From a virus, in the IMG/VR virus record IMGVR_UViG_3300025410_000016, positions 18,210-82,209 of that record: a stretch of 64,000 nucleotides of DNA. One strand, given 5' to 3'. Under the pieces are notes generated by a model that was not told where the DNA came from, did no database searches, and was given only the letters and a program-made list of their open reading frames with translations. Position 1 is the first letter of the stretch. Each line of letters starts with the position of its first letter. The position numbers were made by a program, and so were the translations under genes. Positions 7,117 to 27,206 of the stretch are shown here, one piece after another.

Positions 7117-7764
7117 GTGTCGAGTGTCGCCATCCTTGTGCCGATCCTCAATCGTCCGCATCGCATCGAGCCTTTGTTGCAATCCATTGCAGACTCGACC
7201 ACCTTGCCGCACCGTGTCGTGTTCGCTGCAAGCGATCAGCCGAGCATTGACGAACTGACCAGACTCGGTGCGTCATTCATTACCGATGAGGGCGGGGACG
7301 AGGGATCTTACCCGAGGCGGATCAACCGGCTCTACGCAGAGACGACCGATCCCTACCTCCTCCTTGCAGCCGACGACTTAGCGTTCCGTCCGCAGTGGCT
7401 CGAAGAGGCCATGAAGGTCATGGAAACGCTTGACGGTGTCGTGGCGTTGAATGATCAGTACAACCCGGCCGGTGTCCACTTCCTCGTGAGCCGCAACTAC
7501 ATCGAGACGTTCGGTGGTTGCATGGACGATTCAGGTGTCGTGCTCCATGAAGGCTACCGGCACGCCTACTGCGACGATGAGTTCCGTGCGACGGCTCGTG
7601 CTCGTGGGAAGTGGGCTCTCGCCCATTCCGCAGTGATTGAACATCTCCATGTTGGCGCAGGCAAAGCCCCGATGGATGAGACTTACCGCATTGGCGAAGC
7701 CGCCATGCCCCATGACTTTGGCGTCTTCATGTCACGCGCCCACCTCTGGAACACAGGAGATTAG
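7117..7764 (+). CDS. GT-A/GT2 family glycosyltransferase
   Basis: VAILVPILNRP N-terminal strand, LLAADD (DxD-like), YCDDE, C-terminal EHLH. Confidence 0.85.
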   Translation: MSSVAILVPILNRPHRIEPLLQSIADSTTLPHRVVFAASDQPSIDELTRLGASFITDEGGDEGSYPRRINRLYAETTDPYLLLAADDLAFRPQWLEEAMKVMETLDGVVALNDQYNPAGVHFLVSRNYIETFGGCMDDSGVVLHEGYRHAYCDDEFRATARARGKWALAHSAVIEHLHVGAGKAPMDETYRIGEAAMPHDFGVFMSRAHLWNTGD

Positions 7765-8127
7765 ATGGCGACGATCACTCAACTCCCCGCTCCCCTGACG
7801 CTGAACGCTGTCGCAGGGAACCCGGCCATCTTGACGTTCGCCTTGACGGCGACTGACTCGTCTGGCAACCCGATCCCCTGGTCGTCGATCACGAACTACG
7901 CGATGAACGTCTACGACCAGTACGGCAACGTCCTCACTGCGGCCACGCCAACGGTGACCTCTCCCTCGTCGGGGAACGTGACCGTGACGTGGAGCGCTGC
8001 ACAGACCTCCGTGCTCGGCCAGCACCAGCAAGCCCGCATGGCGTTCTCTGTCTACATCAACGGCGTTGGTCCCTACACCCTCGCATCTGGCCAGATCGTG
8101 ATGACCCCGGAGGCGTACCCCTCGTGA
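7765..8127 (+). CDS. small beta-rich virion protein (possible appendage attachment)
   Basis: 120-aa Thr/Ser-rich ORF, GTGA-coupled to giant fibre gene. Confidence 0.6.
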   Translation: MATITQLPAPLTLNAVAGNPAILTFALTATDSSGNPIPWSSITNYAMNVYDQYGNVLTAATPTVTSPSSGNVTVTWSAAQTSVLGQHQQARMAFSVYINGVGPYTLASGQIVMTPEAYPS

Positions 8128-11100
8128 CTGAACCTGTGAACGTGACCGTCGGCGCTGCGTCCGTTGGACTCGCAGTGTCGCTTCAAGATCAGACCGTCGC
8201 CCTCACCGCTCCGGTGGGGGCTGCCAGCGTCGCGCTTGGAGTCACGGTCGGCGGGGCGGTTTCGTTCTCGCTCGGCACCATCGACCCGGTCTACTCCGTC
8301 GGAGTTGGTTCCGCGGCATCTATCGGCGTCTACTCCGCATCGGTCGGGCAACTCGGCGTCGTCGCTCTCGGAACGGATCTCGGTGGCACCGCAGCATCTC
8401 CGATCGTTGTCGGTCTCGACGGGACCCCGCTCGGTCCGCTCGCGGTCGCGAGCGTGGGGCAAGTGCTGCAGTGGAACGGCACAGCGTGGGTCCCCGGCAC
8501 GATCACCTCGGGCGTGACTTCGGTCAATGGAGCGACTGGCGTCGTTGTCCTCAACGCTGCCAGCGTGGGGGCGGACCCGGCTGGCAGCGCCGCTGCTGCT
8601 TCAATGCAACTTCTGCCGCTCTCTGGCGGGACGCTCACGGGTCCGCTGGCGGGGACGAGCGCGTCGTTCTCTGGCGAGATCGTCGCTCAGGACTTCTCTG
8701 CGACCGGCATTGGCTCGGCATCTGCAGGGGCGCGGTTCGTCGGCGGGACGACCTCCGGCGCTCCGACGAGCGGGACGTTCAATGCTGGAGACTTCATCAT
8801 CGACCAGACCGGCAAGATCTGGTTCTGCAACGTCGCCGGTTCCCCTGGCCAGTGGTTCACTGCTGGGAAGACGGCGGTGGTTCGGTCAACCTCTGCGAGC
8901 GTTGGCCCGAACGAGCAGACGGTCTGGAACGGCACCACGGCTGCTCAGACTCTCACGCTCCCTACTGCGGCAGTGTCGGGCTACACCAACATTCTGGTGA
9001 ACTACAGCACTACGCTCGCCGGGTCGGGAACGGTCACGATTGCCCCGAACACTGGCCAGTCGCTCAACTACTTCGGCAAGACTGGCAACTACAACTTGAG
9101 CCAAGGCGAAAGCGTCATCTTGTCTTACGTTGCCACGAGTGCGACGACGGGAACGTGGTACGCGGTCGAGGCGAACAACCTCGCCTACGCCTTCTTCCCT
9201 GAGGCAAGCATCACGGCGACTGGGTCGACGCTCAACAACGCTGCTCCGCTTGCACTCGGCTACAACCTCGTAACGGGCGCGACGGCGAGTGCGAACTACG
9301 GCTCTGGGACTGGCGTGATCCTGCCAAAGCCCACCATCCTCGGCACGCAGATCCTCGTCGAGAACACTTCAGCGAACTGGTTGGTGATGTACCCGACTCC
9401 GGGCGGCAACATCGACGGTGGCGGGCAGGACAGCCCCGTTTGGCTCCCTCCGAACTGCGTCTGGACTGGCGTCTTGAACTCCCTAAGCCCCGTTGCTTGG
9501 ACGAGCCTCGTTCCCGGCATGGTCGGCTCACCTGGCCAGACGACGATTGCCTACGGGTACGGGAACGCCTCTGTCGGACTGACCACGACCGGCGTGTCGG
9601 CGAACACCTACGGGCTGTCAGCCTCGACCTCGCCGACGTTGACGATCGACTCCTACGGGCGCATCACGGCGGCGTCCTCTACCCCTATCGTTATCCCCGC
9701 TTCGCAGTTGTCCTCCGGCTCCGTCAACACGACCGCTGGACAACTGACGGGTGGCGGTGCGCTATCGAGCAACCCGACGCTCGGCCTTGCGACGAGTGGA
9801 GTGTCTGCGAATACCTACGGGCTCTCGGCGTCGACTTCGCCGACCTTGGCAATCGACGCCTACGGGCGCACCACCGCAGCATCTTCAACGCCCATCGCCA
9901 TCCCGCACACCTCGGTCACCGACTGGGCGTCGAACGTGAGCGCTCTCGGTCTGAGTGTGCAGGCTGCCACTGGTGGCACGACGTGGAACGGGACTGCGGC
10001 TGACGGTGGGACGATCGTCCAGTGGACCGGCTCGGGCACGTCGACCTACAACCTGCCGACGACGGTCCCGTCGACTCCGTGGTGGGTCATCGTCACCAAC
10101 TTGAACACGACCGGCAACGTGCAGTTGGCTCCAGGGTCGAAGTTGCTCAACAACGGCAGTACGGGGTACACGGTCCAGCCTGGCCAGTCCGCTCTGGTCT
10201 GGTCCGACGGATCGAACTACCAGATGTTTGCCAACTTCTCCCCGGCCACCTACACCTTCTTGAACAACCTCGCGACTGCGTTCACCTTGATTACTACATC
10301 GGCGTCGGTGTTCCAGGGATCGACCAACACTAGGGTTGTGTTCACCGGCTCGGCGTTCGGGCAGACAGTGACGTTCCCTTGTTACTCGGCTGGCGCCATC
10401 AACATAGTCACCAACGACTCATCGCAGCCAATCAACATCGTAAGTGGCAACACGGCTGGGACTGCCGGTGTCGGCGTCATCACGAAACTCGACGGGACGA
10501 CGACGGTCGCTGGTGGTGTTGGCTCCGCCTCCGTCTCCGGAACTCCAACCATCACGAGCGGTACGGGTGGGAGTGTCACCGTCGGGGCTGCGACCTTCCC
10601 GTTCCCTGCCTCTGGTGGTTCGATCTACGTCGTCCACAATGGCGCCGGGTATGCCATGCCTTACACGTCCTACTCGGCGAGCACGTTTGTCATTCCGAGC
10701 ACCTACTCCGGCCCGACCGTGACGCTTGGGCCGAATGACTTGGTGACCTCGTACGGGTTTCTGTTGTCGCCGAACTCTTCGGTGATGATGCTCCAGCAGA
10801 CGTCGACGGCGTGGTGGGTCGTGTCTCAGAGCAGCAGTGCGAACTCACTCTACGGCGGTCCGGTGTGGAACTACGTCCCGCTGACCAACATCTTGACCTC
10901 TGCGATCACCAACGGGTCGACGATCACATCTCTCTCGACATCTGCTCTGCCGTATGCAATCAACGCCGGGTCGGTCCAACTTGTACTCGGGGCTACGAAT
11001 CAGATTCTCGCGACAAGTGGGGCGTCCGTCGGGTCGACGAGCATCCCCATCACTGGATCTCCGGTGGCATCGTTCGGCGCATCAGTTGGGACTGGGATCT

Positions 11101-14100
11101 TCCCGAACAGCATCACGCTCCAGAGCCCGTGGACTCACGCAGATCAAACCGGAACTGCATGTCAGTTGGCGGTCGGCCTAACGAGCGGCGTATCGAGCGG
11201 GTCAACGCTGACCGTGTCGCCGCTGAAGTTCGCTCTGCCAAGCGGGGCAACGGTCTACGTCTTCGCTAGCACGTCCACCTACCAGGCGTTCACCCTGACG
11301 GCGCGAGCCGAGATTGGGGCGACAACGCTCTACGTGACTGCACAGACCGCGAACGCTACGTACAACACCGCCACCAGAGTGGTCGTGGTCGGCTCGGGAA
11401 CAGTGACTCTGACGCAGAATGTCTACTTGCCTGCTGCGACTGCTGCCGGGCAACAGGTCGTGGTCGAGCGGACGCTTGGCGTCGCAATGACGGTGTATGC
11501 CCCGACGAACTCGACTCTCGGTGGCAATAACTCCTCTTACACCATCCAAGCCGCTGGAGCCAACCTGGGAGCAGTAGTCGTGTTCCAGAGTGCCACTGGC
11601 GGAGAATGGCAGCCGGTTGGATCGTTCTCTACTGACTTTTCCCACGGTTACCAAGTCTCTGGCACGCTGGAAATGTACAACAACTCGCAGTTTCGAGCGG
11701 TCCCAACGACGTTCACGTCGGCGCAAACGCTTGGGTCGGGTAGCGGCCAGTACCAGAACCTGTCGATGCTGTTCTCGAACTCATCCACGACCCCGTACAC
11801 CTCCACGTTCGGGACGTCGATGACGACGGGCATCGTCATGTGGATTGAGAACTCTGCATCGTCGGCTGGCGCGGTCATCTTCAACTGCGCTGGGACCGGG
11901 ACCATCGGAGGACTCTCTTCCTTGACGCTCCCTCCAGGTTCCAGCATGTGCGTTCGAGTTGACGTCGCGGGGAATAACCCCGTCATCGCCGTGCTCGGTT
12001 TCTTCGGTCCAAACAGTGTCGAACCGGCGACGCTGCTCGAAGGGCTGCCGTTCACGGTGTACGGCCACTCGTTCACGACGCCGCTGCAGAACAACGCGAT
12101 CTCTTGGCCTCCCGCTCAGGGCGGCACCTTCGCCCCGGCTGGGAACGGACTGGCATGGTCATGGCCGAACCGAGTCGCGCTGCGACTGCGGACGATGGAC
12201 TATGCGCTCGGTCGCCTCGGCTCGCTCCGCCTCGGAGGCATCCCCGGCACGACCCTGGCGACTACGGCGAACACGATTGTGTCTGGCAATGGCCTGCGGA
12301 ACTCTGGTGGTGTCTCGGACGCTGACGCCTACAGCGACCTCCAGTGGAACCCCGGTCATGGCGCTGTCGCAGGATCGTACGGCTTGACTCCTGCATCTGG
12401 GCTGACGACGCAGAGCGCAGCGGACCCCGGAATCGTGGCGATGAGTTGTGCAGTCAACGACGCGACCGCTCAGACCCTCCACCAGAACTCCGTCTTCGGC
12501 GGATGGTGGACAATCATGCACCGGGGCGGCACGGGCTACTCGTCGAACAACCTCTACATGTGGAGGGACTACGGCATCACGTTCCAGGGAACGGGGCTCA
12601 ACGCGAACTCGAACGGGATCGTAGGTAACGGTAGCAACTCGTACAGCACGCTCTACTGCTCGCCGCTGCCCTACACGATCTCATCTGGGCAGACGTTCCT
12701 GATTGCTAACGGTTCGTCTCTGGGCAACGGGGCTTCGTACCTGGCAGCGACGGCGAGCGCTACTGCCTCCATCGGAGCGACGCAAATCAACATCAACACC
12801 GTGACCCCTGCCTCCGGCTCATACTCGGTGAGTCAGACGTCCAGCCCGGTGAAGATGTACCCCGCCTACCTTCTCGGCACCGAAGCGACCGCCGCTGCAT
12901 GGAGCACGGCGACCTCCGCAGCAAGCGTGCAGGCAGCGCTCGCTGCGCTGAACTACTCAACGACAGTGAAGGTGTCGACGCCAACATCACCAACGGTGTC
13001 CACGACGAACGGCTCGACCTCTGCATCAGTGACGTCAGGGACAACCTATGCAGCGGACTACTTCCAAGTCGGCGACTACGCCACGATCAACGCGGCTGGT
13101 TACACCGTCGCATCCGTGGGACCCGCGTCAGTCTTCCTCCTCGGCAGCAATGCTGGGTCGACCGGGTCCTACACGGCGACCATCGTCAACCGCTACCGCT
13201 TCTACTACACGACTCCCGCTCCCGTTGCGGGGGCGGGGTCACTCCTCGGGAACCCGGTGTCTCTAGTCGGCATGGCTGGGGCGGCCCAAGACACGGTCAC
13301 CACAGCGTACGGGGGCTACACCAGTGACACGCCGCTCTACACCATCCCGCAGTCTGGCATTATCACCACGACAGCGGGGACGACTTCAGCAAGCATCCCC
13401 GCAGCAGGCACCATCACGACGACTCGCGGGTCGCAGATCGCTTCATTCACTGGGCCTCCTCCTGCTCCTGGCCAGCCCATCTGGATTGCTGGGGCGGGAC
13501 TGAGCGGTACGCACTTCCAGACCAACGTCCAAGGGGTCGGCGTGGCGTGGGGCTTGACGGCCTCGCAGGTCCGGCTGGCGAGCGCCGCGAGCGCGGGCAC
13601 CGGGTCGAGCGCGAACTGGTGGACGGTCCCCGCTCAGTACGACGCGATCCAGTCCGCCCCTACGGTCCTGACAATCACGCCTGGGGCGACGAGCGGCAAC
13701 GCTCAGGCGACTGGTGGATACCTCACTGCATGGTACGGAGGGGCGTCCGCGGTTGTCTCGTACAACACTCCAGCATCGGCTGTCGCGACCGCCCTGCAAG
13801 GTCTCACGATCGGTTCTGGGGCGTCTTGCTCGGCAACTGGTGGGTCGGTGAACTCTGCTGCCACTGTCCTGACGTTCACCTCTCCAGTCGCCGGGCTCTG
13901 GGTCGACTTCTCGACGCTCACGACGAACTTCGGCATGGCCGGTGGCTACACCGCGGCCTGGACGACGGCGAGCGCGAGCGGCACGTTCAGCGGTGTCCCG
14001 ACATGGAGCGGCACGCCCTTCTCGTCCAACCTGACCTGCACAACTGCTGCGACGATGGCAGCGGCTGCATCGGTCAACGCTCGCCTCGCATCGAGCCAGT

Positions 14101-15707
14101 GGTATGGCGTGAGCAGTGCGATCTACGGTGGAGCGGGCTTCGCCGGGGTCAAGGCTGCGTGGAAGAACGGCCTGACCGCGTCGCTGCGGTGGTTCAAGTC
14201 TGACGCTGGCGCAGCGAACAACGGCTACGCAGCCTTCAGTGGCCCGAACAAGGCGACGACGACCCTCCCATCAACTTCGACTACCCGATGCACCACGAGC
14301 ATTTACGGCGCTGCCGTGCCGCCCGGCTACACGGGTGGGCAGTTCCCCTGGGGGCAGGTCATCTACCTTCAAGGTAACGGTTTAGACACTTCGCTTTCAT
14401 GCCCGCAAGTGGGCGCGTACGCGACGGTAACGGGTGGCGGTTTCACTACGGTCAGCGGGACTGTCCTGTATGTCGGCCCGAACTCGTCGTACTTCGTGAT
14501 TAGCAACGCGACATCACAGAGCACGCTGAGCGGCATCGTAGCGAACTACACTCTCGGTGGCGCCAGCGTCGGGGCAGCATCGGTCTCCCTCAACGGCTCA
14601 ACCACTCCAGTTGTCGGCGACTACCTCTATGACGTCGTGGTCGGACACACGAGTTATCTGGCCACGGGAACGAAGATCACGTCAGTGACGGGAGCCTCTC
14701 CGAACTGGGTTGTCGGCTTGAGCGCTTCGGTGGTTACGGCAGCAACAGGTGACGTGGTCACCATGAGCACGTACGACTTGCTGACGGCGACGTTCAATGA
14801 CTGGGTGACTGAGGCAGACTCATACGCCACGGGCACACCGACGTACACGTCGAACACTAACTTCGGTGGCTCTGGGAACCAGAGCGCTACAGCGCCGAAC
14901 GCTGGAGTCGTGAACCTGGGCTGCTCGAACACCTACGGCAGCACCATCCGGACGACCAGTGTCTCGTCGACTCCTCCGTCGTACGTGCTCACGGTCAACG
15001 ACGCTCAGAGCGCTGGCGAAGTCATCGCCCTCTACCCCGTCTACCCGTACCAGAACAACGACCTCACGGTGTCCAACAGTTACTCCACGGGCTTCTCGAT
15101 GGTCGCCAGCGTCGGCCAGACGAGGTACGGCGTGCGCACCTATGGGATGCCGTCGGCGAGGACTCCCTTGCAGACGAGCCCGCTGCGGACGCAGGGCACG
15201 GTGGCGGCTCCGCTCTCGGTGACTGGTGGGTCGGTGAACACGGTGACCATCACCAAGCCTGCTGGGGACACCCTCAGCCCGACGCTCCACACGGGTCTGC
15301 CGGTGGAGTTCGACTGCGTCTTCACCACGACGCAATACCCGCCACTCGTCCTTCTCGTGGCGGAGTACTCACCACCGGCGCAGACGCTGCTCTTCATGTC
15401 ACAAGCCTTCTGCGAACTCATGCAGTCGTACGCGGACGTGTCGAGTCAATCGGAGTTCGCATGGTACGTGGTGACCGTGCCTCCGATGACGACTCTTCTC
15501 GCCAGCGATCTCAACGGCTCGACCTACCAGCAACTCCACCCGAACAACACCGGCCAGCAGAAGATGACGACGTACCTGTCGAACTGGATGGCGGCGAACG
15601 TGCCGCTCTGGTACTACGGGCCGCTCCCCTTCAGCCGGTACAACTCTCAAGGCATCGCACTGAGCGCTGGCACTACCGGCCTCGGCTCACGTATCGGCTA
15701 CGCCTAG
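8124..15707 (+). CDS. giant fibre/appendage protein (~2,527 aa) with fibre repeats and a split SGNH-like domain
   Basis: GTG start overlapping previous stop; S/T/G/A-rich; VTSVNGATG, LPLSGGTLTGPL, two TIDxYGR repeats; GHS/VND/LHPN blocks. Confidence 0.8.
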   Translation: MTEPVNVTVGAASVGLAVSLQDQTVALTAPVGAASVALGVTVGGAVSFSLGTIDPVYSVGVGSAASIGVYSASVGQLGVVALGTDLGGTAASPIVVGLDGTPLGPLAVASVGQVLQWNGTAWVPGTITSGVTSVNGATGVVVLNAASVGADPAGSAAAASMQLLPLSGGTLTGPLAGTSASFSGEIVAQDFSATGIGSASAGARFVGGTTSGAPTSGTFNAGDFIIDQTGKIWFCNVAGSPGQWFTAGKTAVVRSTSASVGPNEQTVWNGTTAAQTLTLPTAAVSGYTNILVNYSTTLAGSGTVTIAPNTGQSLNYFGKTGNYNLSQGESVILSYVATSATTGTWYAVEANNLAYAFFPEASITATGSTLNNAAPLALGYNLVTGATASANYGSGTGVILPKPTILGTQILVENTSANWLVMYPTPGGNIDGGGQDSPVWLPPNCVWTGVLNSLSPVAWTSLVPGMVGSPGQTTIAYGYGNASVGLTTTGVSANTYGLSASTSPTLTIDSYGRITAASSTPIVIPASQLSSGSVNTTAGQLTGGGALSSNPTLGLATSGVSANTYGLSASTSPTLAIDAYGRTTAASSTPIAIPHTSVTDWASNVSALGLSVQAATGGTTWNGTAADGGTIVQWTGSGTSTYNLPTTVPSTPWWVIVTNLNTTGNVQLAPGSKLLNNGSTGYTVQPGQSALVWSDGSNYQMFANFSPATYTFLNNLATAFTLITTSASVFQGSTNTRVVFTGSAFGQTVTFPCYSAGAINIVTNDSSQPINIVSGNTAGTAGVGVITKLDGTTTVAGGVGSASVSGTPTITSGTGGSVTVGAATFPFPASGGSIYVVHNGAGYAMPYTSYSASTFVIPSTYSGPTVTLGPNDLVTSYGFLLSPNSSVMMLQQTSTAWWVVSQSSSANSLYGGPVWNYVPLTNILTSAITNGSTITSLSTSALPYAINAGSVQLVLGATNQILATSGASVGSTSIPITGSPVASFGASVGTGIFPNSITLQSPWTHADQTGTACQLAVGLTSGVSSGSTLTVSPLKFALPSGATVYVFASTSTYQAFTLTARAEIGATTLYVTAQTANATYNTATRVVVVGSGTVTLTQNVYLPAATAAGQQVVVERTLGVAMTVYAPTNSTLGGNNSSYTIQAAGANLGAVVVFQSATGGEWQPVGSFSTDFSHGYQVSGTLEMYNNSQFRAVPTTFTSAQTLGSGSGQYQNLSMLFSNSSTTPYTSTFGTSMTTGIVMWIENSASSAGAVIFNCAGTGTIGGLSSLTLPPGSSMCVRVDVAGNNPVIAVLGFFGPNSVEPATLLEGLPFTVYGHSFTTPLQNNAISWPPAQGGTFAPAGNGLAWSWPNRVALRLRTMDYALGRLGSLRLGGIPGTTLATTANTIVSGNGLRNSGGVSDADAYSDLQWNPGHGAVAGSYGLTPASGLTTQSAADPGIVAMSCAVNDATAQTLHQNSVFGGWWTIMHRGGTGYSSNNLYMWRDYGITFQGTGLNANSNGIVGNGSNSYSTLYCSPLPYTISSGQTFLIANGSSLGNGASYLAATASATASIGATQININTVTPASGSYSVSQTSSPVKMYPAYLLGTEATAAAWSTATSAASVQAALAALNYSTTVKVSTPTSPTVSTTNGSTSASVTSGTTYAADYFQVGDYATINAAGYTVASVGPASVFLLGSNAGSTGSYTATIVNRYRFYYTTPAPVAGAGSLLGNPVSLVGMAGAAQDTVTTAYGGYTSDTPLYTIPQSGIITTTAGTTSASIPAAGTITTTRGSQIASFTGPPPAPGQPIWIAGAGLSGTHFQTNVQGVGVAWGLTASQVRLASAASAGTGSSANWWTVPAQYDAIQSAPTVLTITPGATSGNAQATGGYLTAWYGGASAVVSYNTPASAVATALQGLTIGSGASCSATGGSVNSAATVLTFTSPVAGLWVDFSTLTTNFGMAGGYTAAWTTASASGTFSGVPTWSGTPFSSNLTCTTAATMAAAASVNARLASSQWYGVSSAIYGGAGFAGVKAAWKNGLTASLRWFKSDAGAANNGYAAFSGPNKATTTLPSTSTTRCTTSIYGAAVPPGYTGGQFPWGQVIYLQGNGLDTSLSCPQVGAYATVTGGGFTTVSGTVLYVGPNSSYFVISNATSQSTLSGIVANYTLGGASVGAASVSLNGSTTPVVGDYLYDVVVGHTSYLATGTKITSVTGASPNWVVGLSASVVTAATGDVVTMSTYDLLTATFNDWVTEADSYATGTPTYTSNTNFGGSGNQSATAPNAGVVNLGCSNTYGSTIRTTSVSSTPPSYVLTVNDAQSAGEVIALYPVYPYQNNDLTVSNSYSTGFSMVASVGQTRYGVRTYGMPSARTPLQTSPLRTQGTVAAPLSVTGGSVNTVTITKPAGDTLSPTLHTGLPVEFDCVFTTTQYPPLVLLVAEYSPPAQTLLFMSQAFCELMQSYADVSSQSEFAWYVVTVPPMTTLLASDLNGSTYQQLHPNNTGQQKMTTYLSNWMAANVPLWYYGPLPFSRYNSQGIALSAGTTGLGSRIGYA
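9591..9905 (+). repeat. two copies of a tail-fibre repeat (GVSANTYGLSASTSPTLxIDxYGRxTAASSTPI)
   Basis: copies near 9591-9698 and 9798-9905, protein nearly identical, synonymous codons diverged. Confidence 0.8.
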
Positions 15708-15729
15708 ACCTGCGCCCACGGAGGCAAAC

Positions 15730-16677
15730 ATGACCATGACCAGCGCGTACGCACCTTTTGATGTCTCGTACAGTCAGCGGACTCCGTACTTGACCGTTAC
15801 GGAGTACCAGAACGCCCCGACCGCTTTAGACATCGGTAACCTTGTGGCAGGTGGTAGCCCTCTCGTTCAGCAACAGGCGCTCCAAGAGGTCATTGGGCGC
15901 GCCTCGTCTTGGATGGATCAGTTCTGTTGCGGAGCGTGGGGGACCCTTGCTGCGACGCAGAACATCGAGAACGGTCGAGTGTGGGGGAATCGTAATGGGC
16001 AGTTAGTCGTCCACCCGAAGTACTGGCCCATCTTGTCGGTGGACACCTTCTCCTACAGCGCCATTGGTGGGAACCAGTGGGGAGTAGGTGGTCTGTCCGG
16101 TGGGTTTGGAACGACCGCCGCTTCGATCACCCCGGCGGGGAACATCTGGATTGAGCCACAGCAGTTCGTGGTGTCTCCTTCTGGTGTGTCATCATGGAAC
16201 GTCAACTCCGCGCAAGGCATCGGCACCGCCGAGTACTTCTGCGAGTGGACGTACACGAACGGTTGGCCGGTCACCACCTTGGCGGCTTCGGTCGCTGCAG
16301 GGTCTCAGTCGATCACGTTGACGAACGTGACCGGGATCTTCCCCGGCACCGCGCTCACGCTGTACGACATGCCCAACGATGAGCAGATCCAAGTGGCGTC
16401 GACCTACTCGGTCGGCGCTTCGGTTGTGCCTCTGGTGTCCCCGCTGCAGTACACCCACTTCAGCGCCATGGCGACCAACCTGCCCCCGGCGATCAAGCAG
16501 GCAGCGATCCTGGCGACGACGGCGTTCATCAAGGAGCGGGGGTCCGGTGCACTCGTGGTGAACGACATCGGTGAGGTCACCCACAGTGAGCAGGGATCAG
16601 TCCAGAACAGTGCCGGCGATTGGGCACAAGCGGAGTTCTTGCTCATGCCGTTCCGTCAAACGTTCGTGGGGTACTAA
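15730..16677 (+). CDS. head-to-tail adaptor
   Basis: N-terminal PYLTVTEY and C-terminal LPPAIKQAAIL helices; position before tail genes. Confidence 0.7.
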   Translation: MTMTSAYAPFDVSYSQRTPYLTVTEYQNAPTALDIGNLVAGGSPLVQQQALQEVIGRASSWMDQFCCGAWGTLAATQNIENGRVWGNRNGQLVVHPKYWPILSVDTFSYSAIGGNQWGVGGLSGGFGTTAASITPAGNIWIEPQQFVVSPSGVSSWNVNSAQGIGTAEYFCEWTYTNGWPVTTLAASVAAGSQSITLTNVTGIFPGTALTLYDMPNDEQIQVASTYSVGASVVPLVSPLQYTHFSAMATNLPPAIKQAAILATTAFIKERGSGALVVNDIGEVTHSEQGSVQNSAGDWAQAEFLLMPFRQTFVGY

Positions 16678-17452: not shown

Positions 17453-17454
17453 CC

Positions 17455-18792: not shown

Positions 18793-18812
18793 CCCAAACA
18801 AAGGAGACAGAA

Positions 18813-19426: not shown

Positions 19427-19433
19427 GAGCCCC

Positions 19434-19892
19434 GTGAAGATCAACGTCGACCTTGCGAAGTTCTCCAAGAGCATCGAAGCCCTCATCGAAGCAGTCGATG
19501 AAGGAACGCGCCTTGGAGTGGTCGACGCCATCTCACTTGTAGAGCGGGAAGCGAAGCGGAACTTCGCCGGGCAGATCTCCATCGGGCAGGCTCGACCTCC
19601 CGGTGGGGATCGCCCGTGGGCGCACAGTGAAGCACTGAAGCGTTCCATCACCCGCTTCCCCACCGTGCCCATGCAGATCGGCGTGGGGCAATACGAGCAG
19701 AAACTCGCTCCGACCATGGTCTACGCACGGCGCGTCGAACTTGGTTTTGTTGGTCGGGACAGCCTCAATCGTCTGTACAACCAACCGCCGTACCCGTACA
19801 TGAAGCCGGCGCACGAGCGTGCCTTACCCCAACTCCTCGGCATCTTCAAGTCGCATTGGTCGAGGGCAATAAGAGGGAACCAACATGGCTGA
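19434..19892 (+). CDS. HK97 gp10-like neck/tail protein
   Basis: LKRSI...YARRVELG...PYPYMKPA motifs. Confidence 0.7.
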   Translation: MKINVDLAKFSKSIEALIEAVDEGTRLGVVDAISLVEREAKRNFAGQISIGQARPPGGDRPWAHSEALKRSITRFPTVPMQIGVGQYEQKLAPTMVYARRVELGFVGRDSLNRLYNQPPYPYMKPAHERALPQLLGIFKSHWSRAIRGNQHG

Positions 19893-22800
19893 GATCCTTG
19901 AACCAGTAGTCGTCTCCATTGCGGGCAACACCACTGAGTTCATCGCGTCTCTGGTCGAGGCGCAGCGTCAAGCAGAAGAGTTCGCCAAGAAGACGGACAG
20001 CATCGGTGGGACCGGTGGGCTTGGGAACCTTGGCGCAGGTGCGGCGGCAGACACCGAGAAGATTGTCAAGAACGCAGAGCAAGAAGGCTCGCGGGCTGGC
20101 ATAGGGTTTGGCTCGCACATGATGAGTGGGCTGGAGAAGTCCCTCTCCATGCTTGGAAGTTTTGGTCTTCCCCTCGGACCGTTGCAAGAAGGTCTTCGTA
20201 AGACGAGTGACGCCGCCCACGGCACCGCCAAGGAAGCCACCGGCCTGTTCGACACGTTGGCGGGGTACGGCAAGGTCGCTGCCATTGGGCTTGGGGCGAC
20301 GTTCGCCGCTGCGGCTGGTGAGGGCATCCACCTCTCCATTTCCTTGCAGAACGAGTCTGCGACCCTAGCGGCCAACGCCAACATCTCGGTCGCCCAGGCG
20401 ACCAAGATCTCCAATGCGTTCTTGGACACCGCCGGCACCGCCGAGTACTCCGCCCAAGAGATGACCACGGCGTTCGCCGGGGTTGCTGGTCAGTTGGCGG
20501 CGACGAAGGGTAGTGCGCTCACCACTGCTCAGTCCGTCCACTTCATGCGGCAGTCCATGGAACTCGCCACGGCGACCGGGACCAGTCTCAACACCGCTAC
20601 GAAGACCATGGCGGACACCTTGCAGGCGTTCCAGTTGAACGCTTCGCAAGCCGGTCATGTCGCTGACATCTTGACCGTTTCTTCGCATATGACCGGTCAG
20701 AGTATCGGCGGCGTTGAAAAGTCATTGACAAGAGTTCGCTCGTCCCTTGGTTCGGTGTCTCCCCCAATTGGGCAACTCGCCAGTCTTTTGGTTGACATGA
20801 CCAAGCACGGCGAAAGCGGCCGTAAGGCCATGGCTACCCTGCAGACCACGTTCACGTCGTTCCTCAAGCCGGCGCAGCAAGTGGCGAAGGCACAAGATCA
20901 GTTGAAGGTAGGTCTCCAAGACCTGCCTCCGCATCTGCGCGCCCTGGCAGCGGAGTATGAGAAGGGCAACGTCCAAGCCTCGGTGATTTCAAAGGCGACC
21001 AAGGGTCTTACCATCGGACAAGCCGCATTGTGGGGGCAGTTCAAGAAGGGTGCCGACGCCGTCAGGTTGTCGAACAGTTCTCTGCAGATGATGGGTGTTC
21101 AGGCGCTCGACTCTCACGGCAAGTTGAAGCCGCTAGAGAACATCATTGGCCAACTGCACAACCGCATCAAGGGACTTGGCCCGGCCCAGGCCGCTGCGAC
21201 GTTGAGCGCGATGGGCTTTGGCTCGGGTGCTGCGAAGATGGTCCCGGTTATTGAAGCCGGGGTGAAGGCGTACAAAGACACCGTCACTCAGGTGACTCAT
21301 GTTGGTTCTGCACATGAAGCCGCTGCCAAGCGCAGTCAGTCGCTCCAAGTGCAGTTCATGATCATGAAGGCTGCCGTCGAGGACCTGTTGACCAAGTTGG
21401 GTCAAGCGCTCATGCCGGTCATCCACGCGGTCGTTGGTGCGTTTGCCAAGGTCATTGGTGTTGTCGTGCGTTGCAAGCCGCTGCTCATTGGACTTGCAGT
21501 GGTGGTTGGTGGGATCTTGACCGCGACCATCGGTGCGTTTGCCATCCGTGGACTCGGCAAGTTGATTGCGATGCTGTCTGAGGCCGGCGGGTCGGTCATG
21601 AAGTTTGGCCGCAAGATCCATGATCTCGTTCCACCGATTAGTGCTGCCAAGCGTGCCGAGGAGGAGCACGCTGCAGTGGCGCGTGAGACTTCTCAGAAAA
21701 TGCAGAACTACGCTAAGGCTCTGACCAATTCGGTTGAGTACAACACCGAGCAACAGACTCGGGAGTTGGAGTCGTTGGCTGAGGCTTCTGGCAACACTGA
21801 GCGGGTCTGGCAATCGTCGATGGCTGGGATTGCTGAAGCCTACGGTGCTGCCACCGACGAGGTTGCTGCTGGCACTTCGGCTATGGAAGGGTCGATGGAC
21901 AGCGTCATGGCGACCGCCGAGGCAGACGGTCCTGCTACCGGGTTGGCACTCGACTCCATGCTTGGCCCCATCGGTCTCCTCATCCCGATCATCATGCTCG
22001 TGGCGACGCACTGGAAAGAAATCTGGGGCGTCATCAAGAAGGTTGCCGTAACGGTGTGGCATGTTCTTGATGGTGTGTGGGAAGGGATCAAACATGCCGT
22101 CATTACTGCGTTCGAGTTCATCAAGCACCACCTGAAGATCATCATCGAGGCCATCGTGGCGATCATCTTGGGTCCGATTGGCATTTTGGTCATCTTGCTC
22201 GTCACGCACTGGAAGCAGGTAAAGAAAGATGCCATCGAAGCATGGAACTGGCTGCTCAACTTCTTCAAGGAGATCCCCGGCAAGATCATTGGCTTCTTCT
22301 CCTCTGCGCTCAAGTGGCTTGAGAAGGCTGGCAAGTGGATCTTGCAAGGATTGTGGACCGGTCTCAAGATTGAGTGGCGCATCGTAGAGTTCTTCTGGGT
22401 CCAACTGCCGTTGAAGATTCTTGGATACTTGGCAAGCGCTGGGCAATGGCTCTATCACACTGGCCTCGACATCATCAAGGGTCTTTGGCACGGCATTGTT
22501 ACTGCGGCGAAGGATGTGTGGAACTTCTACACCAGCATCAATTCCAAGATCCTTGGTTTCTTTGTAAACGCCGGCAAATGGTTGATCAATGTCGGCATCG
22601 ACATCATCAAGGGTCTGGCAAATGGAATTGGTAAGGGTGCCAAGTTTGTTTGGGATGGGGTAAAGAACATCGGGGGAGGAATCCTTCATACCTTTACGAG
22701 TTTCTTTCACATCTCGTCACCCTCACGGCTCATGAGTGTCCACGGCCTCTACCTCATGCAAGGTCTTGCTAACGGCATCGAAGAGAACTTGAATGAAGTG

Positions 22801-23289
22801 CAAGGCTCTTTGTACCGCGTCACTCATTTGTTCACTGCATTCCAAAACAGTCTGCTGTCGCTGTTCGGTACGGCGAGTACGTGGCTCACCAAGGCCGGCC
22901 ACGATATTACCTACGGGCTGGTGAATGGGTTGACCTCTGGGATGGCGGCGGTCATGCAAGCCATGTTGCACCTGCGAGCCATGATGTCGTCAAACGCTTC
23001 AACGCTTGCACAATCGTTTACCGCATCATTACAAACGTCATTGCAAACGTCGCTGTCGTCGATGTCGCTCAATGTGGCAACTCCCGCGGCAGTGCCCGCA
23101 GGTGGTGGATCTTCGACCGTGTTGTACGTCACTTCCCCAATCAGCATCGACGGCCGTACCGTGGCCCAAGTGGTGACGAAGTACCAATTGAAGGACGCCC
23201 GAGGCACGGGGTCGGTGTATGGACGTTACGCAGGTGGTAACCAAACCGGGCTTTCGACCGGTACGAACGTCAACGGTATTTCCCGCTAA
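19885..23289 (+). CDS. tape measure protein
   Basis: 1,134 aa, Ala-rich helical, W/F-spaced repeats, FHISSPSR motif. Confidence 0.92.
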   Translation: MAEILEPVVVSIAGNTTEFIASLVEAQRQAEEFAKKTDSIGGTGGLGNLGAGAAADTEKIVKNAEQEGSRAGIGFGSHMMSGLEKSLSMLGSFGLPLGPLQEGLRKTSDAAHGTAKEATGLFDTLAGYGKVAAIGLGATFAAAAGEGIHLSISLQNESATLAANANISVAQATKISNAFLDTAGTAEYSAQEMTTAFAGVAGQLAATKGSALTTAQSVHFMRQSMELATATGTSLNTATKTMADTLQAFQLNASQAGHVADILTVSSHMTGQSIGGVEKSLTRVRSSLGSVSPPIGQLASLLVDMTKHGESGRKAMATLQTTFTSFLKPAQQVAKAQDQLKVGLQDLPPHLRALAAEYEKGNVQASVISKATKGLTIGQAALWGQFKKGADAVRLSNSSLQMMGVQALDSHGKLKPLENIIGQLHNRIKGLGPAQAAATLSAMGFGSGAAKMVPVIEAGVKAYKDTVTQVTHVGSAHEAAAKRSQSLQVQFMIMKAAVEDLLTKLGQALMPVIHAVVGAFAKVIGVVVRCKPLLIGLAVVVGGILTATIGAFAIRGLGKLIAMLSEAGGSVMKFGRKIHDLVPPISAAKRAEEEHAAVARETSQKMQNYAKALTNSVEYNTEQQTRELESLAEASGNTERVWQSSMAGIAEAYGAATDEVAAGTSAMEGSMDSVMATAEADGPATGLALDSMLGPIGLLIPIIMLVATHWKEIWGVIKKVAVTVWHVLDGVWEGIKHAVITAFEFIKHHLKIIIEAIVAIILGPIGILVILLVTHWKQVKKDAIEAWNWLLNFFKEIPGKIIGFFSSALKWLEKAGKWILQGLWTGLKIEWRIVEFFWVQLPLKILGYLASAGQWLYHTGLDIIKGLWHGIVTAAKDVWNFYTSINSKILGFFVNAGKWLINVGIDIIKGLANGIGKGAKFVWDGVKNIGGGILHTFTSFFHISSPSRLMSVHGLYLMQGLANGIEENLNEVQGSLYRVTHLFTAFQNSLLSLFGTASTWLTKAGHDITYGLVNGLTSGMAAVMQAMLHLRAMMSSNASTLAQSFTASLQTSLQTSLSSMSLNVATPAAVPAGGGSSTVLYVTSPISIDGRTVAQVVTKYQLKDARGTGSVYGRYAGGNQTGLSTGTNVNGISR

Positions 23290-23304
23290 TCAAAGGCAAG
23301 GGAC

Positions 23305-26300
23305 ATGACTATTTCAGCCGTACAAAACGTCAATGCTTTGGGCGGTGCATCGGTTTCTACCATTGCTGCGACCTTGCCTTCTCCAACCGGATCCGGCAAT
23401 ACACTGATCGCTACTATTGCTTGCCAGTACGGCTTGAGCGTGGCGAGCATTGTTGATACTGCAGGCAACCCTTGGATCAGGGCGGCGGTCGCATCTGGTA
23501 CTGGTGCGTCGGTTGGTCAATCTATTGGTTTCCCAACGACGACGAGTAGTTCGCCCGTCAATCTGCCAATTGCAGGTTACGGGACCTCGATGGCTGTTTT
23601 GAACCCTGCGGTGTTTTCTGCTTCCGGTGGAAGTGGATTCGTTGGTATCAGTGGAAGCGTTTTTGCGATTACGTACACGGGCATTAGTGGCAATTCGCTG
23701 CTCAATGTGAATTGCACCGTAGCACTTACAGCCCCGGCGTACTCACCTGTTGGCGTGTCGTTGCCCGGTACTGGCAACTATTGTGAAATCTGGTACAGCC
23801 GTGGAGTGAAGTCTGCGAGTACCACCGCATCGGTTACGTTTTCTGGGCCTCTTACTGCTGGCGCAGTCAACATTGCTGAGTTCAATGGGATTTGGTATGT
23901 CGATCCTCTTGACCAAACTGGTGCAACGTTTACCAATTACAACTACAGCGCTGGTGCTTCTGTCGGTGCGACCAGTGCATCGATGTCACCAAGGACAAAC
24001 GGTGAGTTGGTCGTAAGCGTTATCGCAAACGATCAACGTGCTGCTGCCCCCGCTGGTTATTCGTCACTCCCCTTGAGCACCTACAGCGGGTGGAACGCTG
24101 CGTACTCAATTTTGAGTGGTTCGGCTACCGTTGCCCCGACGTGGCAACTCACGACGGCTTCTAGCGTCCAGCGTTGGGCAATCGCCACGGCAACGTTTGT
24201 CTCCGGTGCGGTTGGCCTCAATCCACGTTTGCAATTCCCCGAGACTCTGGTCCAGATCTCTACGCAGTCTGATTACCTTGCCCCACTCAAGGGTTACGGA
24301 GTGTGGAGAAACATCTCGTCGTACTTGCGGAGCGCCACTCTTGGTCCGCTTGGCCGGCAACATGAACTTGACCGGGTCCAAGCCTCACAAGGTCAGTTCG
24401 TCTTCGACAACCGTACCGGTGTGTTCAATACGTGGAACACGAGTAGTTTCCTGTACAGCGGCGGGTACGGCCTTGAGCCTATGAATCCGATTCGCGTCGT
24501 TGCTGCGTGGAATGGAGTGACCTACCCCAAGTACTACGGCTACCTCACCGCGGTCGAACCGCAGATTGCTGACGTGCTGAACGTCGACACTAGGGTCAAT
24601 GCGAGCGACCTGTTCCAAATCATGTCGCTGAGGTACTTGGCGAGCAACAACTACTTCCAGCAGATCATGGGCGATAATCCCGTGGCGGTGTATCGCATGG
24701 GAGATCCGAACAACCAGATTGCTGTTGCTGACTCCTCTGGTAATGGGTACACCATGTCGCTTATCCCGAATGAGTCTGGCATGCCGCTCTTCGGAGACAA
24801 TGGGTTTTTGCTGTACGACGCAAACACTTCTGTTGATTTGACCGCTGGAACAAAAATCAGTAATGGCGGGATTTATGGAGTAAACCGCTACGGAGTTTCA
24901 ACTCCGAATAATCACTCGGCTTCTATCGTGACTCCTCTTGCCTCTGCGTCGGCAGGTTGGTCAGTGGAGTTATGGTACAAGTACACCGGCACGTCCGATA
25001 TGACTTCTGGTACTGCGTTATTCAAAGACGCTGTGAGTACGACCTCAGAGAGCAGCCTTGTCACTCCGCCGTCTTCTGATGGGTTTGGATTTGGCAATCT
25101 CGTTACCGGCAATAGTATTCCGACCCGCACGTTGGTTGTGGCAAATGAAGTGCCGATCAGTCAAGGGATTGCACTCTCCAACGCCGCAACGTCGACAAGT
25201 AGTAGCGATATGTTGACGTGCCTGCCGGGTTCGTACACCTTGTTCTCCGCTTCAACTGTTGGCGGGCAATTCAGTCTTCGTATTGGTTCTGCAGTTGATG
25301 GAAAGACCAACACGGTTTCTGGACCGGGATCGCCAAACGTGTATTGGGACCGATTGAGTTTCGGCGTCTACACGGCGAGTGCAAGTGGCGCAGTCAATGG
25401 TGCGGGCATATGGAATCACCAGTACTACTTGCCCTACGGCGCGACTTACAGCCAAACGTTGCTTGATGGTGCATGGCATCATGTCGTGTGTACATGGACC
25501 TCGGCGAGCGTGGTGAGCCTGTACGTCGACGGAGCGCTCGACACCGCGTTCACTTCCCCGCACTTCAATGCCGCTTACGCCACGGGCATGAACTTCGCCA
25601 CTCCTGCCCAGATTAGTTTCGGGTGCGACATGAATAACCCGAGTCTGCCCTCGCCTTCCACCCCGGCCAATGCCTTGCCGGGGAACCTCCAAGACGTTGC
25701 GCTGTACAACTACGCACTCAACGCCTCCCAAGTTGCCCAGCACTACCAAGTGGGGACGTGGTTCGCTTCATCAGAGGTGGGGGCTTCGGTTGGTCCTGCT
25801 TCAGCGGGCCGGCTCAACAAAGCCCTTGAGGTCATTGGTCTTGATCCAACGGTCGTACTCGTTTGTCCGTATCCGTTCAAGACGGTGTTGTACCCGGAAA
25901 CCAACTACACCACCACCACCTCGCACCTCAACTACCTGCAGACGATGACGCAGACAGAACCGGGACTCATCTTCCAGGGTCCTGATGGGTATGTGTATGC
26001 CCATAATCGTCAGTACCAATACTTGAACCCCACGACGGCGAGTGCTGCGTATGTGTACGGAGATGACCAGTCTTCCCAATACCACTACGACGGCAAGTCG
26101 TTGCAGATTGCTAAAGACGACCTTGATGTGTGGAACGACATCCAAGCGCAGTCGGGTCGAACGGCCAATGCGTTGACCGGCCAGACTGCTGGTGCTTTGC
26201 AAGAGTGGGGACCGGCGCAATCTGTCACGGTCTCGGTCTCTGCGATCAAGTACGGCAACCGGACCATGCAAGGCTTGACGGCGCTGCAGCAACTCTACGA

Positions 26301-26670
26301 CAGCGACGCTTTGGCATTGGCGCAAAACTACGCCGCTTGGTACAACTTGCCAATCAACCGCATCCAGCAAATTGTCCAGACCTCTGCAATGGCCGGCGGT
26401 GCCAACCTTGTGCCGATGCTCAACGCCAAACTGATTGACCGGGTGACGATTCGTTACACCGGACAGACTCCTGGTCCCACGTTCGTTCAAGACTCCGTGA
26501 TTGAATCGATCAAAGATGAGATTGCCCTTGACAATGGTCCAATGTGGACGACGACATGGGCGATGAGTCCGTATGAGATCTTGATGAACGCTATCTACCT
26601 GTACGACTTCCAAACCCCTGACGCCACGTTTACCGGTGCTTCGGTGACGACCGGCCAACTCGTTCTCTAG
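23305..26670 (+). CDS. minor tail protein with LamG/ConA-like domain
   Basis: follows TMP; DGAWHHVVCTW...LYVDG...DVALYNYALNASQVAQHY. Confidence 0.8.
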   Translation: MTISAVQNVNALGGASVSTIAATLPSPTGSGNTLIATIACQYGLSVASIVDTAGNPWIRAAVASGTGASVGQSIGFPTTTSSSPVNLPIAGYGTSMAVLNPAVFSASGGSGFVGISGSVFAITYTGISGNSLLNVNCTVALTAPAYSPVGVSLPGTGNYCEIWYSRGVKSASTTASVTFSGPLTAGAVNIAEFNGIWYVDPLDQTGATFTNYNYSAGASVGATSASMSPRTNGELVVSVIANDQRAAAPAGYSSLPLSTYSGWNAAYSILSGSATVAPTWQLTTASSVQRWAIATATFVSGAVGLNPRLQFPETLVQISTQSDYLAPLKGYGVWRNISSYLRSATLGPLGRQHELDRVQASQGQFVFDNRTGVFNTWNTSSFLYSGGYGLEPMNPIRVVAAWNGVTYPKYYGYLTAVEPQIADVLNVDTRVNASDLFQIMSLRYLASNNYFQQIMGDNPVAVYRMGDPNNQIAVADSSGNGYTMSLIPNESGMPLFGDNGFLLYDANTSVDLTAGTKISNGGIYGVNRYGVSTPNNHSASIVTPLASASAGWSVELWYKYTGTSDMTSGTALFKDAVSTTSESSLVTPPSSDGFGFGNLVTGNSIPTRTLVVANEVPISQGIALSNAATSTSSSDMLTCLPGSYTLFSASTVGGQFSLRIGSAVDGKTNTVSGPGSPNVYWDRLSFGVYTASASGAVNGAGIWNHQYYLPYGATYSQTLLDGAWHHVVCTWTSASVVSLYVDGALDTAFTSPHFNAAYATGMNFATPAQISFGCDMNNPSLPSPSTPANALPGNLQDVALYNYALNASQVAQHYQVGTWFASSEVGASVGPASAGRLNKALEVIGLDPTVVLVCPYPFKTVLYPETNYTTTTSHLNYLQTMTQTEPGLIFQGPDGYVYAHNRQYQYLNPTTASAAYVYGDDQSSQYHYDGKSLQIAKDDLDVWNDIQAQSGRTANALTGQTAGALQEWGPAQSVTVSVSAIKYGNRTMQGLTALQQLYDSDALALAQNYAAWYNLPINRIQQIVQTSAMAGGANLVPMLNAKLIDRVTIRYTGQTPGPTFVQDSVIESIKDEIALDNGPMWTTTWAMSPYEILMNAIYLYDFQTPDATFTGASVTTGQLVL

Positions 26671-26678
26671 GAGCAGAC

Positions 26679-27206
26679 ATGACCGCTTGGACCCCACTCA
26701 CTCCCCATGCTGCAGGCGAGTACATCTCGCTCAGTGATTGGAACAACGCAGTTGGGAACTTGAACTTCCTGTACGAGCGTGCTTACGCTATTGCGTACAA
26801 CTCCTCATCTGCCTCTGTTCCCACTGGTGGGACGAAGCAGGTCCCGCTCACTGCGTCCGCTCCCGGTGTCGTGAACTACGGCGCGACGGTGTCAGCAAAT
26901 AACGTGGTCGTTCCTTTCGACGGACTCTACCAAGTGTTGTTTGCCGTGAACTTCACGTCCGCTGCCGGCTCTGGCTCGAACGCCGTCTACTCCGCTGTGT
27001 ACCAAAATGGCAATCAGGTGATCTTGGGTTCTGAAGTTCCTTCTTATGTCCAAGGAGGTGCAACGACCAATGGCAGTGGATTGATTGCTTGCAGTGCCAA
27101 TGACACGATAGGTTTGTACGCATCGAACCTTTCAGGAAGCACCCTGTACACCAACAACGCGTTCACTGCGACGTTTCTGCATGTGAACTTTATGGGAGCA
27201 AACTAA
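26679..27206 (+). CDS. minor tail protein (C1q/TNF-like beta sandwich)
   Basis: VVVPFDGLYQV motif; last gene of tail block. Confidence 0.6.
   Translation: MTAWTPLTPHAAGEYISLSDWNNAVGNLNFLYERAYAIAYNSSSASVPTGGTKQVPLTASAPGVVNYGATVSANNVVVPFDGLYQVLFAVNFTSAAGSGSNAVYSAVYQNGNQVILGSEVPSYVQGGATTNGSGLIACSANDTIGLYASNLSGSTLYTNNAFTATFLHVNFMGAN

Follow-up and report, generated by a model that had tools for sequence, protein, structure and literature searches.

Does a tripeptide that recurs in the virion proteins of an uncultured phage mark the serines to which sugars are attached? The question is raised by a stretch of 64,000 nucleotides (called the window below, at its full length), which comprises bases 18210-82209 of the single-contig virus record IMGVR_UViG_3300025410_000016 (82,209 bp). 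Between positions 7117 and 27206 of the window, a gene for a glycosyltransferase (GT)-like protein is followed by fibre and tail genes, and Ala-Ser-Val (ASV) recurs in several of their products. The initial annotation had proposed that this GT, or a partner enzyme, O-glycosylates serine in an ASV sequon that many virion genes acquired independently. We found that ASV was enriched about sevenfold in the outer virion proteins, that the enrichment acts on the peptide and not on the DNA, and that it is confined to outer virion proteins. We therefore regard ASV as a strong, though unproven, candidate for the signal at which sugars are attached in a clade of uncultured phages. The genes concerned are the following (window coordinates; lengths in amino acids, aa; expected counts explained below).

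7117..7764, plus strand: GT2_215, a GT-A/GT2-like glycosyltransferase, first gene of the fibre module
7765..8127, plus strand: immunoglobulin (Ig)-like protein, 120 aa, between GT2_215 and the fibre; 0 ASV (0.12 expected)
8124..15707, plus strand: giant fibre, 2,527 aa; 20 ASV, 4 ASI
15730..16677, plus strand: virion-block protein, 315 aa; 2 ASV, 1 ASI
17455..18444, plus strand: tail tube, 329 aa, PF18906 with an expect value (E) of 1.6e-18; 5 ASV, 2 ASI
19885..23289, plus strand: tape measure, 1,134 aa, used as an internal negative control
23305..26670, plus strand: minor tail protein, 1,121 aa, Laminin_G_3 (PF13385, E 2.7e-10); 7 ASV, 2 ASI
26679..27206, plus strand: tail-tip protein, 175 aa, BclA-C-like (PF18573 at 28.3 bits, below the cut-off of 38); 1 ASV

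Expected counts were taken from composition-matched shuffles (2,000 per protein). Six proteins were treated as outer virion proteins: the fibre, the 315-aa protein, the tube, the minor tail protein, the tail-tip protein and the capsid protein, whose gene lies outside the window (5,040 aa pooled). Together they held 39 ASV, with 5.72 expected (~7-fold, Poisson 6e-20). For the fibre (3.23 expected), the tube (0.51) and the minor tail protein (1.07), none of the 2,000 shuffles was as high as the observed count. The capsid protein held four copies (0.45 expected) and the 315-aa protein two (0.26 expected, p 0.024). The single copy in the tail-tip protein (0.24 expected) was not significant alone. 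The tape measure showed one ASV (0.82 expected, p 0.56). The internal virion and assembly proteins, 11 in number with 5,689 aa (tape measure, portal, MuF, two large head proteins, a 609-aa pre-capsid protein, connectors and chaperones), had three ASV (2.91 expected), and the remaining 92 open reading frames (ORFs) of the genome (20,584 aa) had eight (9.47 expected). The ASV counts of the initial annotation, made by eye, were exact for all six of the proteins it listed. Its statement that the tape measure and the non-virion proteins are not enriched was confirmed, and the capsid, which it had suggested checking, turned out to be enriched as well.

Ala, Ser, Val, Gly and Thr are abundant in the outer proteins, and ASV is part of some repeat units in relatives. 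Chance, composition, local low complexity or a word at the DNA level might therefore be suspected as the cause. When residues were shuffled within blocks of 10, 20 or 40, the means were 7.4, 6.5 and 6.0 ASV, and neither global nor block shuffles exceeded 18 (the maximum in 3,000), compared with 39 observed. A first-order Markov model, which already absorbs part of the signal, predicted 13.0 ASV in five outer proteins, where 35 were observed. The serine codons at the 39 sites were TCG (19), AGC (9), TCC (5), TCT (3) and TCA (3), and the sites used 26 distinct 9-mers. A DNA-level word was therefore rejected. A shared inserted domain or internal repeats were rejected too, as BLASTP gave no mutual match among the six outer proteins and no internal repeat within the fibre (E 0.01). 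This diversity of codons and 9-mers and the lack of a shared domain or repeat, with the shuffles above, exclude chance, composition, a word in the DNA and a common domain as causes, and since the enrichment is also replicated in independent genomes (see below), we consider such explanations practically negligible. On these points the initial annotation was right: composition alone does not suffice, and the varied serine codons, from both the TCN and the AGY family, speak for selection on the peptide.

The signal was specific to the order and the identity of the residues. In the outer proteins, only Ala was enriched before SV and only Ser between Ala and Val (ATV: 5 vs. 6.0 expected). After AS, Val was found 39 times (5.7 expected), followed by Ile (9 vs. 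2.5), and Ala was mildly enriched (14 vs. 7.9). Position -1 of the motif favoured Gly, Ala or Ser, and the position after Val favoured Gly. The five permutations of ASV were at or below expectation. In the fibre, AVS was found three times, SAV twice, SVA once, VAS four times and VSA three times, and ATV three times, in line with the rarity noted in the initial annotation.

The fibre starts with GTG at 8124, which overlaps the stop of the preceding gene, and a GGAGG lies upstream. No Pfam or PHROG family matched it. Fibre residues 988-1600 (window 11085-12923, 613 residues) are free of ASV, where about five copies would be expected at the density of the fibre.

Which enzymes could read such a signal? 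Besides GT2_215, the genome carries a cassette of glycosylation genes just downstream of the capsid gene (genome coordinates 11271-16972).

GT372: next to the capsid gene (genome 11271-12389), PHROG 7162
GT2_260 and GT2_244: both with PF00535
Other cassette genes: a class-I methyltransferase, a 218-aa protein of unknown function, a hexapeptide acyltransferase and an FkbM methyltransferase

The GT-A assignment of GT2_215 is marginal, as PF00535 was matched at 24.3 bits with a gathering cut-off of 23.3. PHROG 14945 ('glycosyltransferase') was matched with E 6e-10. 'DD' pairs are present in the sequence at residues 86, 137 and 153. The AlphaFold2 (AF2) model of GT372 had a predicted local distance difference test (pLDDT) score of 92.9 and showed a two-Rossmann GT-B fold of the GT4 type. 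Its top Foldseek matches were BshA, MshA, PimA, PglA and glycogen synthase (E 1e-11 to 1e-9, template modelling (TM) score 0.60-0.68), and the serine-glycosylating SdgB ranked 44-45 among the fold matches. The sequence of GT372 gave PF00534 (E 0.051, 13.6 bits) and PF13692 (E 0.14) below the cut-off, and a phmmer search against PDB sequences returned nothing at E 1. The family of GT372 had 147 members at E ≤1e-5. The 120 members listed were all at least 45% identical, seven of them with precomputed PF13692/PF00534 hits, and many of the 120 lie on phage-sized contigs. Sugars are the usual substrates of hexapeptide acyltransferases and FkbM methyltransferases. No transmembrane-like segment was found in the cassette enzymes or in GT2_215 (maximum 19-aa hydropathy ≤1.33 for the GTs), which fits soluble enzymes that add single sugars in the cytoplasm.

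The motif was followed into relatives of the phage. With the tube of this phage counted in, a protein search gave 109 tube homologues, of which 106 carried ASV (1-5 copies). These 106 are all homologues with at least 46% identity; the three negatives are the most distant (36-38% identity). Across the 109 tubes, AS[V/I/L] was present at S23 in 80, ASV at S93/94 in 78, and the motif at S174 in 81, at S193 in 100 (mostly as ASI), at S198 in 52 and at S170 in 33. A scan of IMG/VR with a tube profile added 15 new loci of a near clade (at least 52% identity) and 58 loci of a far clade (37-42%). The 13 unique near-clade tubes held 36 ASV (4.0 expected), none of them lacking the motif, and the other ORFs of the near-clade loci held 60 (23.1 expected). 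The 47 unique far-clade tubes held only six (9.3 expected), and 41 of the 47 had none. The other ORFs of the far-clade loci showed a modest excess (116 vs. 78, 1.5-fold), close to that of the permutations (93-116 vs. 87, 1.1-1.3-fold). When all unique near-clade ORFs of at least 100 aa were pooled, ASV was found 220 times (71 expected), ATV 76 times (75) and ASI 67 times (44), counts from relatives that are not mutually independent. In the near-clade capsids, position 266 was conserved in 11 of 11 (ASV in 10, ASI in one) and position 309 also in 11 of 11. In the minor tail homologues, ASV counts were 7 vs. 0.79 expected in L004, 5 vs. 0.99 in L006, and 7 vs. 0.58 plus 3 vs. 0.38 in the genome G005.

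In five relatives, the capsid match extends 0.5-0.8 kb beyond the gene length and was called as two or three ORFs (L020:9627-11855, L021:4074-6406, L022:10001-12542, L023:10001-12254 and L027:10001-11872), which suggests an insertion (an intron, an intein or a homing element).

The distribution of the GT genes went along with that of the motif. Two near-clade genomes, G005 (86 kb) and G006 (102 kb), encode the cassette, GT372 and a GT2_215 homologue. They held 40 (13.7 expected) and 38 (13.8 expected) ASV, respectively, concentrated in the tube, the capsid, the minor tail and fibre-like ORFs. The complete genomes G001 (115 kb) and G002 (92 kb) gave no match to PF00535, GT372 or GT2_215. Their whole-genome tallies were 32 (22.6 expected) and 11 (14.5 expected), with no ASV in the tube or in the homologue of the 315-aa protein. 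Two complete far-clade genomes of ~38 kb (G007 and G008) had no match to the PF00535 or GT372 profiles and no ASV in the tube, as judged from the locus around the tube. A GT372 homologue lay within the fetched flank at 11 of 16 near-clade capsid loci; the other five were short or have GT372 elsewhere in the record (L020/G006). No near-clade genome without GTs was found, and every record long enough to judge has GT372. Thus, the comparison of relatives with and without GTs proposed by the initial annotation came out in the expected direction, but the GT-plus and GT-minus genomes are divided by one deep family split, so that there is only one independent contrast.

The initial annotation had placed the GT at the head of the structural block in the centre of its proposal, and GT2_215 (7117-7764) could be the reader of ASV on all virion proteins. 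Its GT signature was upheld, if marginally, and it is one of at least five GT-like genes. Homologues of GT2_215 are located directly upstream of an ASV-rich ORF in L008 (60% identity) and in G005 (44%), as in the present phage; a third occurs in G006, where the downstream ORFs were poorly called. The genome G004 encodes GT372 and one methyltransferase and shows no match to PF00535 or GT2_215, although the absence of GT2_215 is uncertain because G004 is only 88% complete. It keeps ASV in the capsid (3 vs. 0.59), in the homologue of the 315-aa protein (3 vs. 0.28) and in the tube (2 vs. 0.35), while its tail fibres have no ASV. The latter would agree with GT2_215 as the reader, the former would not. 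Moreover, GT2_215 travels with the fibre module and might equally be a fibre-specific extender. Hence, a general reading role of GT2_215 seems clearly unlikely to us. GT372 follows the distribution of the motif no less closely than GT2_215. The pattern in G004 is a hint that GT372 belongs to the conserved sites of head and tube, and GT2_215 to the fibre module, and is compatible with mere inheritance as well.

Sequence that is new within the clade held ASV as well, in several places. In L008, the GT2_215 homologue is followed by a 1,448-aa ORF that has no BLASTP match to the fibre described here and holds 11 ASV (1.19 expected). Similar values were found for the fibre fragments of L007 (8 vs. 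0.71) and for two ORFs of L023 (5 vs. 0.27 and 4 vs. 0.54). The tube P0104 has an insertion of ~100 residues in the variable loop 94-105, which brings three further ASV. In G006 and G005, linkers after the portal domain contain four and three tandem SASV copies, respectively, within ~25 residues rich in Pro, Lys and Asp (e.g. TSASVGTSASVGSTSASVAPKSSSASVAP); the portal of the present phage has no ASV. A packing role for ASV is implausible in linkers of such composition. The initial annotation had claimed independent acquisition, but most sites in the tube and the capsid were inherited at fixed positions.

G005 and G006 also encode fibre-like ORFs (G005:84395-85450 and G006:3390-5141) made of repeat units of the type ..SQSGAW[S/T/A]ASV[D/Q/E]G... 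The one in G005 directly follows the GT2_215 homologue.

The serine itself appeared to be under selection. Among 18 near-clade tube genes, the conserved serines were encoded by TCN and AGY codons at ratios of 10/7 (S23) and 11/4 (S174), and both codon families were also found at S170 and S193. Switches between TCN and AGY are a signature of long-term selection for serine. In far-clade tubes and capsids, the ASV positions contained residues including T, G, R or Y, meaning that the folds do not need A-S-V. The A/S/V-rich fibres of GT-less phages and of the Arthrobacter phage Atuin were not enriched.

The AF2 model of the tube (pLDDT 87.2) showed a double tube domain like that of P74-26 and T5 pb6 (TM score 0.66-0.70). 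According to DSSP on this model, S23, S94 and S174 are in loops, and S104, S170 and S198 are the first residues of short strands beside loops. The C terminus of the tube is -STQY.

We lean slightly towards the view that A-S-[V/I] is read by a clade-encoded enzyme and that its serine receives an O-linked glycan in the host cytoplasm, either ahead of assembly or in its course. That the phages possess a self-contained cytoplasmic protein O-glycosylation system reading this minimal sequon has, in our estimate, an even chance of being correct. We infer that the modification is a glycan, which enzyme initiates it and that the serines are exposed. In the proposed mechanism, the motif would usually be met in the context [G/A/S]-A-S-V-[G/A/S/T]. 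A soluble initiating transferase would add the first sugar to the serine, and the best candidate for this step is GT372. GT2_215 may serve the fibre module. Elongation of the glycan might fall to other GT-A enzymes and its decoration to the hexapeptide acyltransferase and the two methyltransferases, so that the capsid, the tube, the fibre and the distal tail proteins would end up coated with glycans. To gain glycans, an outward-facing virion protein would only have to evolve the tripeptide or take it up by insertion, also as tandem 'TSASVG' cassettes in linkers.

The main rival to the sequon reading is an inherited structural motif. A-S-V would then be a small/small/beta-branched motif for packing or assembly, with a single origin in the clade's ancestor, and the GTs would act on other residues, on DNA or on the host envelope. 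We consider this rather unlikely. It would explain why most tube and capsid sites are found at fixed alignment positions (S174 in 81 of 109 and S193 in 100 of 109 tubes; 266 and 309 in all 11 capsids) and why G004 retains only inherited sites. It would also agree with Thr being unenriched and with the single phylogenetic contrast behind the GT correlation. It does not account well for six proteins that differ in fold and show no mutual similarity, nor for the recurrence of ASV in an unmatched fibre, a loop insertion and tandem linker arrays. The lack of enrichment in A/S/V-rich fibres of GT-less relatives and Atuin and in internal virion proteins, the switches between serine codon families and the tolerance of other residues in the far clade also argue against it.

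Several observations weigh against O-glycosylation of ASV by the GTs, in addition to the single contrast mentioned above. Where conserved tube sites lack Ser, the residue is mostly Ala or Gly and rarely Thr; this fits sites gained from A-A-V and fits a small-residue packing constraint equally well. S193 of the tube lies inside a strand of the model. The homologues of the 315-aa protein contain 0-3 ASV, with 0-1 in most readable ones, so that the enrichment of this protein is weak. Part of the ASV counts in G005 and G006 comes from the repeat unit SGAWxASVxG. The large tail proteins of G004 are not enriched despite the presence of GT372 (0 vs. 1.50, 0 vs. 0.48 and 1 vs. 0.36). Atuin encodes a GT372 relative (28% identity) and several other GTs and shows no ASV enrichment. 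A 452-aa exonuclease-like protein is the sole non-virion ORF with more than one ASV (2 vs. 0.17). Finally, the GTs could act on DNA or on the host envelope instead.

In Atuin, the 4,563-aa minor tail protein (gene 89, L053:16855-30546) contained five ASV (4.75 expected). Other tripeptides are strongly repeated in this protein (RVT 32, GVS 34 and VSA 37 copies in the virion set), so a tandem domain repeat can mimic motif enrichment. Six IMG/VR loci with GT372 relatives of 27-34% identity (L045-L050) showed no ASV enrichment in neighbouring genes, which are not known virion genes. Relatives of GT372 at this distance are uninformative about acceptor specificity.

Strictly, the comparative data demand only a clade-specific trans-acting reader of A-S-V, and this need not be a GT. 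Conceivable alternatives are a serine modification of another kind, a factor for chaperoning or assembly, or a host factor specific to the host of this clade. Besides the GTs, an ADP-ribosyltransferase domain, a DnaJ-type zinc-finger protein whose gene precedes the capsid gene, and the acyltransferase are encoded in the genome. We nevertheless hold a non-GT reader to be very improbable, as the GT cassette is the sole enzyme set seen to co-vary with the motif and placed among the virion genes, and the ADP-ribosyltransferase belongs to a MuF-linked head protein.

How does the proposed O-glycosylation at A-S-V compare with known systems? To our knowledge, Che8, Corndog and Myrna, all mycobacteriophages, are the only phages for which virion glycosylation has been demonstrated. 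The glycans on these three virions are reportedly O-linked at protein C termini. The virion glycosylation work of Freeman et al. 2023 (Cell Host Microbe 31:1216) on these phages is cited in passages of two articles (PMC12363180 and PMC11256854). A full-text literature search brought up no sequon described for the glycosylation of phage virions. The present phage resembles the three mycobacteriophages in its phage-encoded GTs, in the capsid and tail tube subunits as proposed targets and in the (here proposed) O-linkage. Unlike in this type of system, the candidate sites are internal, number 1-20 per protein and are distributed over at least five protein families, among them that of the giant fibre. 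With its two methyltransferases and its acyltransferase, the phage also has the more extensive gene set. A homology link to the validated Che8 system was looked for and not found. When Che8 gp108-110 were compared by BLASTP with all ORFs of the present phage, the best match had E 0.007 over 43 aa (gp109 vs. GT2_260), i.e. at superfamily level only, and the Che8 capsid and tube contain no ASV and both end in -GS. The phage is thus not a member of that system; by analogy, its own system would serve the same end.

SdgA and SdgB glycosylate Ser-Asp repeats, and GtfA and GtfB the serine-rich repeats of Gram-positive adhesins. These enzymes are cytoplasmic and of the GT-B type, and other GTs extend the glycan. 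With its soluble GT-B fold, GT372 would have its nearest mechanistic analogue here, by fold only, and the tandem SASV arrays in the portal linkers of G005 and G006 resemble the serine repeats. However, no sequence relationship to GT372 was detectable and no GtfB-like partner was identified. Moreover, the motif is a tripeptide dispersed over many unrelated proteins and not one long repeat region.

The general O-glycosylation of Bacteroidota uses the motif D-(S/T)-(A/I/L/V/M/T) and acts outside the cytoplasm from a lipid-linked glycan. Common to both are three residues, a hydrophobic residue after the hydroxy residue and the occurrence on many unrelated proteins. In the phage, however, the residue at -1 is Ala and not Asp, and Thr is not used. 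Of its proteins, the cassette enzymes and GT2_215 were checked for signs of a membrane-bound route (lipid carrier, flippase, oligosaccharyltransferase), and they have no transmembrane-like segments. The chlorovirus PBCV-1 glycosylates its capsid by virus-encoded soluble enzymes at a non-canonical site motif, with N-linked glycans on Asn. Virus-encoded soluble machinery and an unusual site motif on the capsid would be shared features, as proposed here for the phage. PBCV-1 differs in being a eukaryotic virus with glycans N-linked to Asn and with unrelated enzymes.

If A-S-V is indeed a glycosylation signal, phage virion glycosylation would have its first described sequon, and a tag for glycosylating serine would be available in portable form. 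Coated proteins could be read from sequence alone. Glycan coats would be more widespread among phages than thought, considering the 147 members of the GT372 family and the 109 members of the tube family, all from uncultured phages. A coat over head, tail and fibres would matter for how the virion adsorbs, how stable it is and how it is recognised. For glyco-engineering, a serine tag of three residues together with its soluble enzymes might be useful.

The phage itself is remote from described ones. A megablast search with the tube region gave no match, and the best protein matches of tube and capsid in a named phage collection were only 26-30% identical. A tube-profile search of genome contigs for a trace of the host found no relative. 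Reading on from the end of the record into its start gives the following gene order (genome coordinates for the capsid gene, window coordinates for the others).

56372-58312: terminase, first in the gene order
58978-61716: portal fused to a NUDIX domain, 912 aa, with the NUDIX hydrolase at residues 670-792
Between the portal and the capsid gene: large head-associated proteins
Genome 7132-8853: major capsid protein, 573 aa, outside the window
Downstream of the capsid gene: the glycosylation cassette described above
After the cassette: a leftward block
5897-6697: lysin with a peptidoglycan-binding domain, then the fibre/tail block

The fibre/tail block begins with GT2_215, the Ig-like protein, the fibre, the 315-aa protein, small connector-like proteins and the tail tube. 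It continues with two chaperone-sized ORFs, a Neck1-like protein, the tape measure, the Laminin_G minor tail protein and the BclA-C-like protein. The Ig-like protein had sub-threshold matches to Big_1 and FlgD_ig and belongs to PHROG 1084 (function unknown). The initial annotation had labelled the 315-aa protein an adaptor, a name that no match in Pfam or PHROG supports. Directly after the tail genes lies the exonuclease-like protein mentioned above (window 27234-28592; PHROG 284, E 8e-38).

Besides the NUDIX domain, another small domain is present at the C-terminal end of the portal. An Alt-like ADP-ribosyltransferase domain belongs to a 1,185-aa protein (L001:40-3597), which adjoins a MuF-like minor head protein (L001:3597-4868) and contains no ASV (0.68 expected). 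Just upstream of the capsid gene, at the position of a scaffold or chaperone, lies the 609-aa protein with DnaJ-type CXXCXGXG zinc-finger repeats (L001:5281-7110). It has one ASV (0.31 expected), and its matches to PF00684 (E 1e-5) and Anti-TRAP (E 2e-6) are both below the cut-off. Between the capsid gene and the glycosylation cassette, a 213-aa PLD-like protein (PLDc_2, E 4e-15) is encoded at L001:10174-10815.

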